Positions 1,069-59,840 of a DNA stretch of 64,000 nucleotides are shown in pieces. The DNA comes from a virus (lineage: Duplodnaviria; Caudoviricetes). Location: IMG/VR virus record IMGVR_UViG_3300037422_000298, one strand, 5' to 3'. The notes beneath the pieces were generated by a model that saw nothing but the letters and a program-made list of their open reading frames with translations, made no database searches and was not told the origin of the DNA. The position numbers and the translations under genes were made by a program. How positions within the stretch are numbered: position 1 is the first letter of the stretch; every line of letters starts with the position of its first letter.

Positions 1069-1514
1069 GGCCTACGCTCCGCAGTCCGCCGATTGATGTA
1101 TCTCTCGTCGCGCCGAATCTGTTTGTCGGCGCGCGGCCACCACCAGGGCGTTATCGTTGGGTCGGCGTGATCGTGTTGTGTGCCCGTGAGTATCAACTGC
1201 CGAGCTACGCCTTTCCGGGCGTCACCGTTTTGCACGTACCGCTCGATGATGATTCAACACGCCCGATGCATCACCACGAGATCGTCCTTGCAACGTCAAA
1301 CGCGCGTACAATGGCGCGGTATCTACATGCAGGGCATCGCGTGCTGTCGACGTGCCACATGGGCCTCAATCGCTCCGCGCTCGTGGCAGGACTCGCGATG
1401 CGGCAAGCCTTCGGCATGTCTCCAACAGACGTGATCGAGCAGATCCGTAGTCAGCGTGGACCGCGGGCGCTATCGAATCCACGCTTTCGGCAACTCATTC
1501 ATCGATTCGCGTGA
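1065..1514 (+). CDS. Dual-specificity/tyrosine phosphatase family protein
   Basis: CxxGxxRS active-site loop (TCHMGLNRS), upstream PLDD acid loop, C-terminal IRxxRGPRALSNPRF. Confidence 0.85.
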   Translation: MRPTLRSPPIDVSLVAPNLFVGARPPPGRYRWVGVIVLCAREYQLPSYAFPGVTVLHVPLDDDSTRPMHHHEIVLATSNARTMARYLHAGHRVLSTCHMGLNRSALVAGLAMRQAFGMSPTDVIEQIRSQRGPRALSNPRFRQLIHRFA

Positions 1515-1882
1515 CGTGCGCGGCGGCGGCGTACCGCAAGTGCGAGCTGTTGACGTGCGGCAAGCGCGTGGTGACGGCGCGCCGCGAAACTTCCACGCGA
1601 ACGTGAACGCTTGGAACCTCGCGAGCGTCGCCACTTCGTGCCGCGTCGGCCGCGCTCGAACACCGTGTACGAGATCAAGAACATCGATACCAGTGTCGAG
1701 CTGAGCAACGAAGCTGTGATCAATCGCTTGTCGCGAACGCCTGCGATCGCCAGACCGGGCATGATCAGCGCGGATCGCAGCAGCCAGTGTCCGAGGAACT
1801 TCGGGAAGGCTCCCGGCTCGCCGTCGAGCACGCCGCAGACAGAAGCCGAAGAAGGGGCGGTGGGACAAGTACTCGACGCCAC
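1499..1882 (-). CDS. Small membrane protein with Arg-rich tail
   Basis: Two hydrophobic segments and a basic C-terminus; GTG start lies 6 nt after a TACGTT -10 next to the palindrome at 1898-1915. Confidence 0.7.
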   Translation of the reverse strand: MASSTCPTAPSSASVCGVLDGEPGAFPKFLGHWLLRSALIMPGLAIAGVRDKRLITASLLSSTLVSMFLISYTVFERGRRGTKWRRSRGSKRSRSRGSFAARRHHALAARQQLALAVRRRRARHANR

Positions 1883-20331: not shown

Positions 20332-20688
20332 GTGACGAAGCGACGCAAACCTCGAACGGTCACCGGACGCGTGGCTCTACGCCTTCGGGAGGCTGTCATC
20401 GGACCGGCGACAGCACTCAACCGCATGCGTGACGACCTGGAGTACGTCTTCATGCTCGTCGTTGCACAAGCAACGCAGCAAGGACTTCAACCGATCGACT
20501 TCGACAACGACGACGGCATCGATGCGTTGAGCGCAATCTTCATGGCGGTCACCGATCGCGATCGCGAGTTGATTCACGTGACGCCAGAGTGGCGCCGGGT
20601 CGTGATTTCCGCGCGGGCGCCACGGCGCGCGTTCTCGCCGCAGTTACCTGCTCGGCGGGATCACATCGGCATGCGAAGAGCGTCTTGA
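20332..20688 (+). CDS. Hypothetical protein
   Basis: 118-aa ORF divergent from the HIT operon. Confidence 0.55.
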   Translation: MTKRRKPRTVTGRVALRLREAVIGPATALNRMRDDLEYVFMLVVAQATQQGLQPIDFDNDDGIDALSAIFMAVTDRDRELIHVTPEWRRVVISARAPRRAFSPQLPARRDHIGMRRAS

Positions 20689-21119: not shown

Positions 21120-21242
21120 GAAGTCGTCATCCAGAGGTGCTCACACGCATAGCTCAATCGAAGAGCGTCGCCCTGATAAGGCGAAGGTTGCGGTCTCATA
21201 AACCGCTGCATTCAACACCCAGCATCTCACCTCGACGGCTTC
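21120..21242 (+). ncRNA. RNA D: tRNA-Ile(GAT)-like body on an extended interrupted stem
   Basis: GAAGTCGTC/GACGGCTTC and GAGGTGCT/AGCATCTC stems enclose a D arm, TCGCC-CTGATAA-GGCGA and a T-position arm with CTCATAA loop. Confidence 0.7.
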
Positions 21243-28538: not shown

Positions 28539-29048
28539 ATGGAAGACCCGACCGTCAACGTCAAGTACTCCGAGTATCAGAAGCTGCGCGAAGATCTGAA
28601 GCAGCTGCAGGCGCGCGTCTACGAACTCGAAGCGCAAGTCACGTCAGGACAACTCGCCGATCCGACGGGTACGACGAAACTCCTGCATGACGGCTTCCAT
28701 GCAGCGATCAAGGTCGTACAGTTTGCCGTCGGCAACCTTGCACCGGAAACGGTCGCGGGATGGCCACACGAGGCGCTCGTCGAGATCGCCGATGCGATCG
28801 ACAAGATCCCCGGTATGGATCAGCACGTGAAGGAACTGCCGCCAGAGCTGCGGCACTTCGCGAAACTCACGGCCGGTTACGAGACGTACCGCAAGGAACG
28901 CGACAAGAGCCGCGTCGTCACCGTCGCGACGGCTGAAGATTTCGGCCCGAAAACGGCTGAAGCTGCAGCGGTGCACGCAAGTCACACGAGATCGAGCGCG
29001 GAAAAGCCACCGGAACCAACGACCTCGGACGAAGCATCGCAACGTTGA
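28539..29048 (+). CDS. Hypothetical coiled-coil protein
   Basis: TACGGT -10 is 6 nt before ATG 28539. Confidence 0.65.
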   Translation: MEDPTVNVKYSEYQKLREDLKQLQARVYELEAQVTSGQLADPTGTTKLLHDGFHAAIKVVQFAVGNLAPETVAGWPHEALVEIADAIDKIPGMDQHVKELPPELRHFAKLTAGYETYRKERDKSRVVTVATAEDFGPKTAEAAAVHASHTRSSAEKPPEPTTSDEASQR

Positions 29049-29180
29049 CAGTGTTCCAGGCTGATGATACCCGTAGACGTAAGCGAGCGCTCTAGCTCGG
29101 CGTTCGTGGCTCTCTGCTCGAACCAAAGTCCCCGTCGGTGCGGTCCCCTAGCCGAGCCGACGGGGCCACACAAAATCCCA

Positions 29181-29252
29181 ATGCACCAGATCCTGCTCTC
29201 CGTTCGACTTCGTCAGCTACGTCAGTTAGCTGGCTCGACGTCGTTGCGTTGA
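29181..29252 (+). CDS. Putative Leu-codon leader peptide MHQILLSVRLRQLRQLAGSTSLR
   Basis: Uses CTG, CTC, CTT, CTA, TTA, TTG once each; stop is 10 nt before tRNA-Leu. Confidence 0.65.
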   Translation: MHQILLSVRLRQLRQLAGSTSLR

Positions 29253-29262
29253 TCGAGCTGGA

Positions 29263-29337
29263 GCTGGCGTAGCTCAACTGGAAGAAGCCGCGAGCTTAAA
29301 CCTCGCGCAAGTGCGGGTTCGAATCCCGTCGCCAGTA
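29263..29337 (+). tRNA. tRNA-Leu (TAA)
   Basis: GCTGGCG/CGCCAGT acceptor, GCGAG-CTTAAAC-CTCGC, TTCGAAT; short variable loop. Confidence 0.85.
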
Positions 29338-29342
29338 CGAAC

Positions 29343-29417
29343 GTCGCGGTAGCCCAACTTGGTAGCGGCAATGCGTTGAGCGCGCATCCAGTGAGGGTTC
29401 GAATCCCTCTCGCGACA
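29343..29417 (+). tRNA. tRNA-Leu (GAG)
   Basis: GTCGCGG/TCGCGAC, ATGCG-TTGAGCG-CGCAT, TTCGAAT. Confidence 0.85.
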
Positions 29418-29426
29418 CGATCACAA

Positions 29427-29500
29427 GCCGACGTAGCCCAACTGGTAGCGGCAACGTGTTCAGCGCACGTTCAGTGCGGGTTCGAATCCCGCCGTCGGTA
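29427..29500 (+). tRNA. tRNA-Leu (CAG)
   Basis: GCCGACG/CGTCGGT, ACGTG-TTCAGCG-CACGT, TTCGAAT. Confidence 0.85.
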
Positions 29501-29524
29501 CGAGTGACGATCCTTCCAACGACA

Positions 29525-30199
29525 TTAGTGATGCCTGAGCGTGACGTCGACGGAGCTGATCGCTTCGGGCAAGAGTGCGACTGAATGTGTAAGAAACGGC
29601 AGCTGCTCCAAGAGCTTGAAGATCGTTTCTCTCGCGCGTTCGACAAGATCATCAAACTTGCAGTCGACGCAGTCGGTCGCGGTTCGTTTCAGCGCGCCGT
29701 CCAAGAGCGTCGCGTGATGATCCACCAACGGCAACCAAAGAGCTTCGTCGATGTCAGCGATTGCTGCAAGCGATTTCGCGACCGCGGCCGAGTCGCGGAG
29801 CATTCGTACGCAGTGCATTTCGTACTTCATCGCGCGCAACGCCGACACGTACGTCTCAAGCAGCAAGCAGAATCGGGGATCCTTGATCGTGATCAATGTG
29901 TCTTCGCCAAAGACCTGCGATATGCGTTCGCGAATGACCTCCACACGGGTCGGTGTTACAGGTATCGGCTGTACTCTTTTGGGATCGAAAGGAAGCCCGT
30001 ACCAAGGTACGCCGACCTCGAACAGGATTTGCTTGTTCAATTCTGTGAGCTGCGTGTTCTCGAAGTATCCCTTGGCGTTGAAAGCGTCTCCGAACTTGAG
30101 ATCCTTACCAAGACTCGCACCCAAGATCTGAAGCACGCCCGTCATCGCGCTCGTGCCACTACGCCCTGTACCTACGACAAGGATCGCCCGTTTGACCAT
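29525..30199 (-). CDS. Sulfotransferase family protein
   Basis: PAPS-binding loop ILVVGTGRSGTS, FNAKGYFE, IKDPRFC. Confidence 0.8.
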   Translation of the reverse strand: MVKRAILVVGTGRSGTSAMTGVLQILGASLGKDLKFGDAFNAKGYFENTQLTELNKQILFEVGVPWYGLPFDPKRVQPIPVTPTRVEVIRERISQVFGEDTLITIKDPRFCLLLETYVSALRAMKYEMHCVRMLRDSAAVAKSLAAIADIDEALWLPLVDHHATLLDGALKRTATDCVDCKFDDLVERARETIFKLLEQLPFLTHSVALLPEAISSVDVTLRHH

Positions 30200-30214
30200 A
30201 TGCGCTCGAAACAT

Positions 30215-30288
30215 GCCAGTGTATCCCAACAAGCAGAGGAGCCCGATTTAGGATCGGGTCGTTGCAGGTGCAAGTCCTGTCGCTGGCA
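30215..30288 (+). tRNA. tRNA-Leu (TAG)
   Basis: GCCAGTG/CGCTGGC, CCCGA-TTTAGGA-TCGGG, atypical TGCAAGT T loop. Confidence 0.8.
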
Positions 30289-30292
30289 CGAC

Positions 30293-30366
30293 GCCACCGT
30301 AGCCCAACCTGGCAGAGGCCCGGTCTCAAACACCGGACAGCGTCGGTTCGACTCCGACCGGTGGTA
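30293..30366 (+). tRNA. tRNA-Leu (CAA)
   Basis: GCCACCG/CGGTGGT, CCGGT-CTCAAAC-ACCGG, TTCGACT. Confidence 0.85.
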
Positions 30367-30377
30367 CTCTTTTCGAT

Positions 30378-32904: not shown

Positions 32905-33567
32905 TTCTGACAGCTCGGGCAAAGGTCTTCAGGGCTGTCGCTCGATGATCGCCGCCAACGTTTCTCAACACCGAGCGCGTCGAGCTTTGCGATTGCGTCT
33001 TCGCGGTTTTGGCCGCGCGTCGTGATCGCGACGCCACAACGATCGCAGATGAGGTCGGCTTCGGAGTAGCGATCGCCGAGCTTCGAGAGGTCCGGCGGCG
33101 TGTCCATGTGATCGAGGCAGAAAAACGGACCATCGGGAAGTCGTGGGTCGTCCTTCGCGACGAAGAGATGTGTTGGGCAGTTCGCGCACGACACGGTCAC
33201 ATGCGGGACGCTCGGATCGTCTGGGTCGGCGCCTTCAAGCGGCCAAAGCAGCTTCTTCAAGCGCTCACCGGAGTCGACCACAACGACTGTTTGAAGCCGA
33301 CGCTCTTGGGCTGTGTTCGCACGAGCGCGATCGGCGGACGCTTCTGCTTGGCGTCGTCGGCGGTCTCCCAAACAGCAAGAACGATCGCACCGATGTCGTC
33401 ACCATCTTTTTGGGTGTACGGCATGCACGCGGCGACCGGCCAACGACGAAATACGGAGCGCGCGATCTGCTTCTCGCGCTCAGCGCTGTCGATCAGATCG
33501 GCCTGCGTGACGTCTTCAGGCTTCAAGAGGTAGAGGCGATACGTCGACACGCGCCCGAACCTAACGC

Positions 33568-33596
33568 TTGACGCTTCCACCGTCGACCGCTACAGT
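33568..33596 (+). promoter_or_regulatory. Sigma70 promoter of the tRNA-Ser unit
   Basis: TTGACG(33568-33573)-17 nt-TACAGT(33591-33596). Confidence 0.75.
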
Positions 33597-33603
33597 CGTC
33601 GTC

Positions 33604-33651
33604 GTGAAGTTCTCGCGCCGGTCATCTCGCTCGTCTAGTAGCAGTCGCTAA
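33604..33651 (+). CDS. Putative Ser-codon leader peptide (V/M)KFSRRSSRSSSSSR
   Basis: GTG is 7 nt after the -10; 8 Ser codons of 5 types; stop is 10 nt before tRNA-Ser. Confidence 0.65.
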   Translation: MKFSRRSSRSSSSSR

Positions 33652-33661
33652 AGCGACTCCT

Positions 33662-33747
33662 GGAAGGTGAGGTCCGCATGGCGTGGACGCCCGTCTCGAA
33701 AACGGGAAGCCCTTAACTGTGGCCGGGTTCGATTCCCAAACCTTCCG
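33662..33747 (+). tRNA. tRNA-Ser (CGA)
   Basis: GGAAGGT/ACCTTCC-G, CCCGT-CTCGAAA-ACGGG, long variable arm, TTCGATT. Confidence 0.85.
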
Positions 33748-33752
33748 CTGCT

Positions 33753-33837
33753 GGAAAGAAAGCTCAGGCGGGTGCAGAGGCCCGGTTGCTAACCGGGTAG
33801 GCGCGTCAGCGTCCGGGTTCGAGTCCCATTCTTTCCG
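33753..33837 (+). tRNA. tRNA-Ser (GCT)
   Basis: GGAAAGA/TCTTTCC-G, CCCGG-TTGCTAA-CCGGG, long variable arm, TTCGAGT. Confidence 0.85.
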
Positions 33838-33889
33838 CGAAAAAAGTTGCGATCGCTGTTGACGGCTGCGATCCGTTCGGGCATCGTGC

Positions 33890-34147
33890 GTCCACCTTGA
33901 ACCCCGGATGTGTCGTCGCGAGACGCCACAGCGTTCACTCCGAGTCGACCGGGCACCGACGTAGGACGTCACGACCTGACGTGGAAGACTCTAGCTGGGT
34001 GGGGACTAAGGTCGAACCAGCGACAGCGACGGAGAGACGACGCGGACAGTTCGGAAAGACGAGCGAGACGGTCTGGAGAGACAGGCAGGACGGCCCGGAG
34101 AGACGGGCAAAAGGAGGGCTCGACGCAAGTCGGGCTCTTCGTTTTTT
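33890..34147 (+). ncRNA. Putative sRNA with four GARAGA-loop hairpins at a 22-nt period
   Basis: TTGACG(33859)-17-CATCGT promoter-like; loops start at 34032, 34054, 34076, 34098; ends in a terminator. Confidence 0.6.
34113..34147 (+). terminator. Rho-independent terminator
   Basis: GGAGGGCTCGAC-GCAA-GTCGGGCTCTTC followed by GTTTTTT. Confidence 0.8.
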
Positions 34148-35049
34148 CGGCTACCGCACAAGCGGCAGCGATCGTCGTCGCAGTGACGCCGCCCAACGCT
34201 TCGCCGCAGCAAGCCCGGCGCGATACGAACAGGTGTCGCAGAACGCGACCCATACCCACTCCACGGCATCCTCTGGATCAAGTAACGCTGTTCCACAACC
34301 GCAACAGACGTTGAGCGTGTACTTCACGCGCAGGTCATTGGCGAACGCGTAGTGCTCGGCAGCACCGGCCGCGCTGATCGCATCGAGCACGTCGCCGAGC
34401 TTCACACCATCAGGAAACACGTGCTCGCGATTCATCGTCGAACGATCGACCAGTCGAGCACTGTGGAGCGGGTGTCACCGATAGCGTGCGCGATCGAACG
34501 GACGACCGCCTTGCGCAGCTCTTTTCCAGCCCGTTCAACGATCCACGACCACTTCGCACCGAGTACCTGTGTGTTGTCTTCAGCTAGCCCACGCCACTCT
34601 TTGAGCGTCATCGTCGATGCAATCGCGGCGATCGCATCTTGACCGCTTGGTTGATCGAGGTCGCGTAGTCGAACTCGGAGCGTCTTCAAACGCAGCGCGA
34701 GGCCGCGCAACCACAACAGGCGCGTTCCGACCATCGGCAGTTGCATGTCGCGTACGACGTTCGCGAGCATCGTCGCGACGTGTGTCGAAGCGATACGTTC
34801 CGAACGACGCGTAGGTGGTTGACGTCTCGACATCACTTCACTCGCAAGATCAGAAACTGTTCGGACCAGTTCGTGTCGGGCTCGACGAGATCGCACGCGT
34901 AGAGCGCGCTGATCGCGTCGTCGACCGTGTCGAACCATTGCGCCTGTTCGACGTCCGGTGACCACGTTCCACCGACGCCCGTGTCCACCAACCAGTATCG
35001 ATTCTCGACGTCAGCCTCGACGTGTCGATAGACGGCGTACTTCGACGTG

Positions 35050-58460: not shown

Positions 58461-59840
58461 TCACGTCTTCTCCGTGATCGTCTGCTCGCCGCGACGGACG
58501 TCCCAGTCGTCGGGGTCCATGTCGACGTGGAGCGCGATCTGATCGTGGGGGTGGTTCTTCTGGAAGATCTTGATCATCCCGTGGACCTGTTTACGCAGCG
58601 TTGGATGGACCGTCTTGCCCGAACGCAGCTCGAAGAAGTAGAGCAGCGCCGGTAGTCCCATCATGACCTCGCAGGGCACGCGGAAGCCGAGCGCGCAGTA
58701 GTACTGCCGCGCGACTGGATCATCAGGCAGTGCACGGATGCGGGCCTTCTGAGCGTCGATCAGCGCGTCGGCCTCCTGCCACAGGTCACCTAGCTCGGTG
58801 ACGTACCAGCGCTCGAAGCCCCAATCGACGTTGAGTAGCGGCATGCGGATCACGCCGTTGCGGTGGCGTTGCAGGTCGCGGAACGAACCGAAGTCGAGCA
58901 GGAACTGGAAGCTGTACTGACCGAGGTCGGTCATGAAGTGCGGCAACACGCAGCCCTTCGGACGTGTGGCCAGTATCTCGGCGTAGCGCCGAAGGCCGAG
59001 GTTGCGCGCACCGACGAGCAGCTCGATGGGTCGGCCGTGCACCTGTGACACCATGATCTGATCGTGTGCGGGATCGAGCGTCGTCGAGTACGTGAACTCG
59101 CGTGCGACCTTCGCTTCCCACTGTGCGCGGGCGACGTTGACGGCCTCGTCCTTGTTGCTGACGCCGCTGACCATCGCCATGTGTCGCCCGAAGCCGCTCG
59201 ACGGATAGCGTGCATCGAGCAGCTCGGTCAGCGACCGTGCGATGCCGCTGATCTCACGCGCCGGATGAACGTTGAGGCCGATCAGGTGATCGACTGCTTG
59301 GCGCAGGTTTGTGTGCCACGACAGCTGCGTCGCGATACCGGCGGGTAGGAAGCCGCGCATGACGTCGAACGAACGTGCCTTGATCGCACGGTCGTACGTC
59401 TCTTGCTTCTCTCCGTCGCGCTTCGGGTAGCGCTGTCGAATGATCTCGCCGATGACGTCCTGCTTGCTCACGTAGAACGCCATCCATGCGTCGAGGATCG
59501 CTTTCGACGTGGGCGTCCCGAACGGATCGATGATCGGCTGCTTGCTCATGTCGATGTAGCGCGTGCTGGTTTCTTGCCCCGAGTAGAGCGGCCAGTCCTG
59601 CACCGCCTTGGCAGCCAGCAGGCTCACGTTCTCGATGAACATCGTCGTCGAGCCACAGTCGGCGATCGACTTGTGTCCGAATCCGACGTAGTAGTTCGAC
59701 ATGAACTTGCCCGAGCCGGACTGCTTGACCTTTTCGAGGTGCACTTCGACGCTCTCGGCCGAGCGCGAGTAGAGCGCCTGCAGCATAGCGATGTCTTCAG
59801 GGGTGAGATCGTCGACGACCAAGAGCTTCTGTTGCTTCAC
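58461..59840 (-). CDS. thyX: Flavin-dependent thymidylate synthase, tandem-domain type
   Basis: GHKSIAD, QETSTRY, FDVMRGFLP, NLR, FRDLQRHR, FELRS..VHP. Confidence 0.85.
   Translation of the reverse strand: MKQQKLLVVDDLTPEDIAMLQALYSRSAESVEVHLEKVKQSGSGKFMSNYYVGFGHKSIADCGSTTMFIENVSLLAAKAVQDWPLYSGQETSTRYIDMSKQPIIDPFGTPTSKAILDAWMAFYVSKQDVIGEIIRQRYPKRDGEKQETYDRAIKARSFDVMRGFLPAGIATQLSWHTNLRQAVDHLIGLNVHPAREISGIARSLTELLDARYPSSGFGRHMAMVSGVSNKDEAVNVARAQWEAKVAREFTYSTTLDPAHDQIMVSQVHGRPIELLVGARNLGLRRYAEILATRPKGCVLPHFMTDLGQYSFQFLLDFGSFRDLQRHRNGVIRMPLLNVDWGFERWYVTELGDLWQEADALIDAQKARIRALPDDPVARQYYCALGFRVPCEVMMGLPALLYFFELRSGKTVHPTLRKQVHGMIKIFQKNHPHDQIALHVDMDPDDWDVRRGEQTITEKT

Follow-up and report, generated by a model that had tools for sequence, protein, structure and literature searches.

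Tiny open reading frames (ORFs) in which codons that match the operon product are over-represented are known from the attenuators hisL, leuL, pheL, and thrL, and from pheM, which stands before pheST. The pheM-pheST arrangement already ties a leader of this type to the translation apparatus. T-box riboswitches bind uncharged tRNA directly via a specifier codon, and no translation is needed. The tRNA genes carried by phages are usually seen as constitutive codon-usage helpers or as spares against tRNA-cleaving defences of the host. A terminator-free form of control by cognate codons has been described for mycobacteria, where polycysteine leaderless short ORFs (LL-sORFs) act as attenuators through ribosome stalling; the stalled ribosomes block a duplex that masks the downstream ribosome-binding site (Canestrari et al., bioRxiv 10.1101/834739). 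In the published full-text literature, we found no leader peptide or sORF that controls tRNA genes.

The window, by which we mean the complete 64,000-nt stretch of phage DNA that was analysed (IMG/VR record IMGVR_UViG_3300037422_000298), carries a Ser-rich mini-ORF directly before a pair of tRNA-Ser genes (Table 1). This Ser leader resembles the mycobacterial LL-sORFs in being a short ORF which begins with AUG or GUG at the putative 5' end of the transcript, is not preceded by a Shine-Dalgarno sequence, and comes first in its operon. Codons for a single amino acid likewise make up much of it, and it would need no intrinsic terminator; stalling is assumed here by analogy. The output of an LL-sORF is the translation of biosynthetic genes, whereas the Ser leader is phage-encoded and the genes downstream are tRNAs. 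Because nothing is translated from these genes, the only steps open to a structure in the leader are folding, RNase P processing, and transcription. Furthermore, the mycobacterial leaders use one codon type, while the Ser leader spreads over four to six synonymous types.

With hisL, leuL, pheL, thrL, and pheM, the Ser leader shares the tiny ORF with cognate regulatory codons (8 of 15 are Ser codons, and 7-10 Ser codons are kept in the variants described below). In contrast to these attenuators, neither a U-tract terminator nor alternative 1:2/2:3/3:4 hairpins were found for it, its start is predicted to be leaderless, and it would control tRNAs. The proposed role, a 5' leader which monitors the charging of the tRNAs for one amino acid, is akin to that of a T-box riboswitch, but no T-box covariance model matched the Ser leader region (33450-34250; none at E<=1), and no other Rfam family matched the leader either. 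The Ser leader would be a terminator-less, leaderless, single-amino-acid form of ribosome-mediated leader sensing, which is in itself a known principle.

Table 1. Coordinates and strands of the features around the Ser leader and of the Leu leader in the window
Feature	Coordinates	Strand	Remarks
Leu leader, MHQILLSVRLRQLRQLAGSTSLR and stop, with 10-nt spacer before the tRNA-Leu array	29181..29262	+	All six Leu codons
Divergent 97-aa gene	33257..33550	-	11 homologues; served to find relatives
Divergent promoter of the 97-aa gene (predicted), overlapping the tRNA promoter	33548..33587	-	TCGACG (33581-33586) -17- TAGGTT (33558-33563) -7 nt- GTG (33548-33550)
Sigma-70-type promoter TTGACG-17-TACAGT (predicted)	33568..33596	+	Sole promoter-like match in 28.5-35 kb; would drive the leader-tRNA-Ser transcript
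Ser-rich mini-ORF, putatively leaderless, VKFSRRSSRSSSSSR and stop	33604..33651	+	GTG to TAA; read and translated
Conserved stem-loop, its loop containing the stop codon	33634..33664	+	RNAalifold, 9 sequences
tRNA-Ser(CGA), class II, G73, CCA not encoded	33662..33748	+	ARAGORN
tRNA-Ser(GCU)	33753..33838	+	ARAGORN

The window has a GC content of ~0.61 and a phage-like gene content: small ORFs are numerous, and a PrimPol, a ThyX, and an HNH endonuclease are encoded. ARAGORN called nine tRNAs, the last two of which are tRNA-Ser(cga) and tRNA-Ser(gct). A further tRNA at 21143-21214 was missed by ARAGORN and called by Rfam (41.8 bits); it is located among odd tRNA-like RNAs behind a consensus promoter (TTGACA-17-TAGGGT at 20685).

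From its promoter through the second tRNA-Ser, the Ser module spans only ~270 nt. The mini-ORF reads GTG AAG TTC TCG CGC CGG TCA TCT CGC TCG TCT AGT AGC AGT CGC TAA and thus holds eight Ser codons of five types (TCG twice, TCT twice, AGT twice, TCA, and AGC; TCC is absent), arranged as an SSSSS run and three further Ser codons. The genes downstream are those for tRNA-Ser. The original prediction of a Ser-rich mini-ORF behind a promoter, with eight Ser in 15 codons and five codon types, was borne out when the sequence was read and translated. The anticodons of the tRNA-Ser pair read UCG and AGY, the commonest Ser codons of this phage (39% and ~33%, respectively, in its long ORFs), which together account for ~72% of the Ser codons. 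Three of the eight Ser codons of the leader (UCA and two UCU) are not read by the two phage tRNA-Ser.

Downstream of tRNA-Ser(GCU), there are ~270 nt without a credible ORF, which include three GGAGAGAC repeats and are followed by a canonical, apparently bidirectional terminator at 34113-34140. This stretch (33839-34140) may be a non-coding RNA that is co-transcribed with the tRNA-Ser pair. On the other side of the module, the two promoters stand back to back at 33548-33596, with the -35 box of each sitting within the spacer of the other. The spacing of the divergent promoter fits the leaderless pattern of this phage, and the 97-aa gene itself looks leaderless (TAGGTT-7 nt-GTG). A CGTCGAC motif in the spacer of the tRNA promoter is invariant, probably because the divergent promoter overlaps there.

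The start of the mini-ORF was compared with the starts at other promoters of this phage, which are marked by a palindrome (GATCGC-N4-GCGATC) together with TAnnnT. There are 12 such sites in the window (e.g., 6998, 32556/32571, 38374, 41992, and 46483) and 15 in a related phage, G001, which is a complete 221-kb IMG/VR genome. In the window, 10 of the 12 sites have an ATG or GTG 5-6 nt past the -10 box which opens an ORF of at least 50 aa; in G001, such starts were found for 9 of the 15 sites at a distance of 4-7 nt, seven of them at exactly 6 nt. Several of the starts at these promoters are GTG, and the promoters appear to amount to a largely leaderless regulon. Since a leaderless start, at an ATG or GTG located 5-6 nt past the -10 box, is typical for genes of this phage, the GTG of the mini-ORF is a credible start. 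It is located 7 nt past the -10 box in the window and 6 nt past it in G001, and a pyrimidine is always found at position -1. The stretch before this GTG is too short for a Shine-Dalgarno sequence, so that the mini-ORF would have to be leaderless; it is probably translated.

The original prediction considered chance to be unlikely, a claim which composition alone carries weakly. Eight loci in the window have at least 8 Ser in 15 codons and at least five codon types, and Ser-rich out-of-frame stretches are fairly common at such a GC content. The probability of finding such a Ser count within the 90 nt upstream of a random position is 0.015. We also searched upstream of tRNAs from 79 unrelated viral loci, reusing as null set the chance matches (at least 120) from a 15-mer search of IMG/VR; at least seven cognate codons were found for none of the 88 scorable tRNAs (90 called). 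Taken by itself, the Ser composition is only mildly unusual and therefore suggestive rather than decisive. That the mini-ORF is more than chance follows from its conservation pattern in ten variants, as detailed below.

Relatives of the phage were traced through 11 metagenome homologues of the divergent 97-aa gene, through one pattern match (L168), and through G001. Gapped leader patterns matched only G001 in IMG/VR, gave L168 as the one new variant in the metagenome collection, and retrieved chance matches only from prokaryote genomes. When 7.5 kb were searched against INPHARED, no relatives were found, the only matches being 61-nt tRNA-Leu-like ones to Erwinia phages. The phage family is uncultured and has genomes of ~220-240 kb. 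Ten distinct versions of the region were obtained from the related phage contigs, with the leader-tRNA-Ser module upstream of the 97-aa homologue and on the opposite strand. In L168 (181-533), the promoter-leader-tRNA-Ser module is not beside the 97-aa gene; it is located directly behind tRNA-Arg(ccg) and tRNA-Glu(ttc) and retains its own promoter despite this different context.

In all ten versions, the -35 box CTTGACG and the -10 box TA(C/G)AGT are invariant, the 6-7 nt before the GTG are free to vary, and the beginning of the mini-ORF, GTG-AAG-TTC-TC, is kept at 6-7 nt after the -10 box. In each of the ten, the open frame is 14-16 codons long and includes 7-10 Ser codons, which belong to four to six types; three versions use all six Ser codon types. 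The type of the stop codon switches between TAA, TAG, and TGA, but the stop always falls within the loop of the same stem-loop. Counted as minimal substitutions over the ten variants, codon positions 1, 2, and 3 have changed 6, 5, and 16 times, respectively (16 of 27 at the third position; binomial P=0.005). Among the columns with a majority of Ser, there are three non-Ser variants, compared with 11 further Ser codons that are synonymous. Indels in the mini-ORF comprise whole codons and are in-frame only, and both other frames contain stops. Sequence identity to the relatives is higher for the mini-ORF (78-94%) than for the adjacent tRNA-Ser(CGA) (65-77%). Positions 5-9 vary freely (R/C/L/G/S) with Ser kept, and the ends of the peptide, VKFS at the N-terminus and SSS(S/C)SR at the C-terminus, are almost invariant; GTGAAGTTCTC is invariant even at the nucleotide level in all ten versions. 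On the aligned sequences, this pattern of substitutions, indels, and identities is the signature of selection on the reading frame, and on the Ser codons in particular.

The mini-ORF is always linked to tRNA-Ser genes. Wherever the sequence extends far enough, tRNA-Ser(CGA) is found behind the leader; it was called by ARAGORN for the window type, the G001 type, L161, L165, and L168, and was read by eye for L149, L150, and L164. The tRNA-Ser(CGA) of L149 (~1380-1520, minus strand), for which ARAGORN makes no call, has a C in place of the universal U33 (anticodon loop CCCGAAA). In the window, the distance between the stop codon and the tRNA is exactly 10 nt, the same as for the Leu leader. The distances among the relatives are 9, 10, 13, 19, 25, 30, and 31 nt; this spread means that the 10-nt spacing, a part of the predicted design, is not a conserved feature.

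A single conserved stem-loop was detected. In the window, its 5' arm consists of codons 11-15 (UCU AGU AGC AGU CGC) and its 3' arm of GCGACUCCU plus nucleotides 1-3 of the tRNA (GGA). The hairpin had originally been drawn as AGTCGCT-AA-AGCGACT; it is real, but its pairing is better represented by the core AGUCGC-UAAA-GCGACU, which is extended by an outer stem UCUAG/CUGGA. The minimum free energy (MFE) of the stem-loop is -11.6 kcal/mol in the window and ranges from -10 to -18.6 kcal/mol across the variants. RNAalifold found 13 pairs in nine sequences, with one covarying pair (UA in four, UG in three, and GC in two), two changes which preserve a wobble pair, and one broken pair. The compensatory change, from U-A or U-G to G-C, is in the outer stem and is at the same time a synonymous change from TCT to TCG. 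The outer 3' strand consists of CU and nucleotides 1-3 of the tRNA in the window, L149, and L161; in the other variants, it is located 5-25 nt before the tRNA. Taken over its full length, the Ser leader shows no unusual stability (z = -0.27).

A terminator scan of 33600-33662 gave no match, while the real terminator of the phage at 34113-34140 has a T6 run. The hairpin is not followed by a U-tract: in the window it is followed by CCUGGAAGG, and no U-run of at least 5 was found in any variant. No antiterminator that could serve as an alternative to the one conserved stem-loop was found. Pairing of the leader with the 5' acceptor strand of the tRNA ("anti-acceptor") was considered and rejected as a general feature. 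It is present in the MFE folds of six of the eight distinct variants, and CGC/UGC of the leader matches GCG/GCA of the tRNA in two clades; however, the gain relative to separate folding does not exceed that of shuffled leaders in most variants (the share of shuffled leaders which do as well as the real leader-tRNA pairing is 0.05-0.85), and a matrix of cognate versus non-cognate leader-tRNA duplexes gave no clear sign of a cognate-specific pairing. A Rho site was also dismissed, since the 58 nt of the leader, with 19 C and 14 G by hand count, are short and not clearly C-rich and G-poor.

The Leu leader was found as described for the window: it extends from the ATG at 29181 to the TGA at 29252, uses each of the six Leu codons once, and ends 10 nt before tRNA-Leu(taa). 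Based on the codon usage of the phage (TTA 1%, CTA 5-6%), the probability that six Leu codons are all different is ~0.001. The parallel design extends to G001, where all six Leu codons are in place and the 10-nt spacing is kept, while four non-Leu codons have changed non-synonymously and an A-U to G-C compensatory change has occurred in the internal hairpin. The two versions differ at seven places, without periodicity. The Leu leader folds as one long hairpin, with the spacer and nucleotides 1-4 of the tRNA as its 3' strand (z = -1.8 in the window and -3.2 in G001). Only two versions are available because the other relatives have no tRNA-Leu array; in L177, L178, and L179, the upstream promoter/RNA element is kept, and the Leu leader and the tRNA-Leu array are absent. 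This element (29045-29180 in the window; ~3030-3160 in L177, L178, and L179) consists of a conserved promoter-like TTGACA element and an RNA-like stretch of ~100 nt, in which GCTCTCTGCTCGA is followed by a CCCC...GGGG hairpin and then by CCACACA.

Bacterial tRNA-Leu normally has a long variable arm. The six Leu codons are covered by five tRNAs with the anticodons TAA, GAG, CAG, TAG, and CAA, all of which measure only 74-78 nt and therefore lack this arm; A73 is apparently kept, as judged from tRNA-Leu(taa). They are encoded at 29263-29501 and 30215-30367 in the window, where a minus-strand gene (~29525-30200) interrupts the array, and at 59285-59678 in G001, where the array is contiguous.

A check of the other tRNA clusters of this genome for cognate leaders had originally been suggested. 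None was found for Met, Thr, Lys, Arg, Pro, Val, or His, nor before the second and later tRNAs of each cluster in the window and in G001. An ORF beginning with ATG AAG CTC AAA, which is preceded by a Shine-Dalgarno sequence and overlaps the start of tRNA-Lys in G001, was rejected as not significant (P=0.26).

Several explanations of the Ser leader have to be weighed. Our preferred reading, which we consider as likely as not, is that the mini-ORF is leaderless, senses the decoding of Ser codons by ribosome stalling, and acts through the stem-loop. That the frame arose by chance in an ordinary spacer between genes is effectively refuted: this idea could appeal to the weakness of the composition statistic alone, but the mini-ORF is better conserved than the tRNA itself in ten variants and shows coding-type substitutions. 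In a classical leader-peptide transcription attenuator, the hairpin would be an intrinsic or factor-assisted terminator, the formation of which is prevented by stalled ribosomes. Such a device would account for the location of Ser codons within the 5' arm of the sole conserved hairpin and immediately upstream of that arm; however, this hairpin is short (6 + 5 bp) and runs into something other than a U-run, the terminator scan is blank, and an antiterminator alternative was not found. We regard this explanation as very unlikely.

The leader might alternatively be an untranslated, structured 5' part of the pre-tRNA which serves in processing or stability or as the initial transcribed region of the promoter; the open frame and its Ser codons would then be a by-product of a pyrimidine-rich UCN/AGY sequence recognised by a protein or an RNA. 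That Ser-rich frames are common in GC-rich DNA (P=0.015) is compatible with this, as are the nucleotide-level invariance noted above and the fact that some of the synonymous variation is tied to pairing (TCT to TCG, compensated in the outer stem). It is opposed by the three-base periodicity of the substitutions, the exclusively in-frame indels, a stop which is kept while its type changes, the fact that the other frames contain stops, a start codon placed as in real leaderless genes, and the blank Rfam result; we consider it quite unlikely. It is also unlikely, in our view, that the mini-ORF is translated without sensing Ser, be it for a small basic Ser/Arg peptide with a role of its own or for ribosome loading on the 5' end, with the hairpin stabilising the leader RNA released by RNase P. 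Here, the nearly invariant peptide ends would find an explanation, a leader cleaved by RNase P would end just past a stable hairpin, and no effector structure could be demonstrated. Against this, positions 5-9 change freely while Ser stays, the mini-ORF is always fused to tRNA-Ser genes, and the tRNA-Leu array has a leader of its own, which includes all six Leu codons and in which the non-Leu residues change non-synonymously. This argues that the codons rather than the peptide are the selected feature.

Returning to the stalling sensor, we envisage that the host RNA polymerase transcribes the mini-ORF, starting at the promoter of the module, as the 5' end of a tRNA-Ser(CGA)-tRNA-Ser(GCU) precursor. 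With Ser-tRNA plentiful, a ribosome would reach the stop codon in the hairpin loop and leave, upon which the stem-loop would re-form against the tRNA; in the window, it would then pair nucleotides -1 and -2 as well as nucleotides 1-3 of the tRNA. If Ser codons are decoded slowly, a ribosome would stall on codons 7-14 and occupy the 5' arm, which would leave the 3' arm and the RNase P site free, and more tRNA-Ser would mature. The open stem-loop would favour correct folding and RNase P processing of the tRNAs, or their transcription; the version that works through folding and RNase P is less certain than the sensor as such, and we consider it doubtful. The lack of a terminator would point to an effector step different from that of the attenuators, either RNA folding with RNase P access or pausing. 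Translation of the mini-ORF, stalling, and the effect on tRNA processing or transcription are what we infer from conserved sequence and predicted structure.

Several observations count against the sensor. In relatives with spacers of 19-31 nt, the stem-loop misses the RNase P site, so that the effector step is not conserved as drawn, and the leader should have no bearing on how RNase P processes the second tRNA. The leader contains UCA and UCU, which the phage tRNA-Ser do not read, and seven other tRNA species have no such leaders. A function of the peptide or of the RNA in its own right could instead explain why the VKFS and SSSSSR ends are invariant, and the GTG in the window is at 7 nt, not at 6 nt, from the -10 box. 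For the codon-sampling leader originally proposed, the analysis supports a conserved ORF with selection on Ser codons, its position behind a conserved promoter, the linkage to tRNA-Ser, and a Leu leader conserved in G001. It does not support the 10-nt spacing as a part of the design, and neither a terminator or a switch by alternative structures nor cognate leaders before the other tRNAs were found.

In a wider and more tentative reading, which we consider doubtful, the phage family feeds back on its own tRNA supply without a terminator, stalled ribosomes gating pre-tRNA processing. Leaderless or internal mini-ORFs would sample the synonymous codons of one amino acid (four to six types for Ser, six for Leu), and, as long as ribosomes are stalled on them, the stem-loop could not close on the 5' end of the tRNA that comes first. 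Maturation of the tRNAs would then rise exactly when the decoding of these codons in the host fails, for example upon cleavage of host tRNAs or starvation during infection.

If this holds true, the phage would measure the decoding of cognate codons and adjust its own tRNA supply. Ribosome-mediated attenuation would then extend from amino-acid and synthetase operons to tRNA genes, and ribosome-gated pre-tRNA processing would represent a mode of control not described for tRNA genes.
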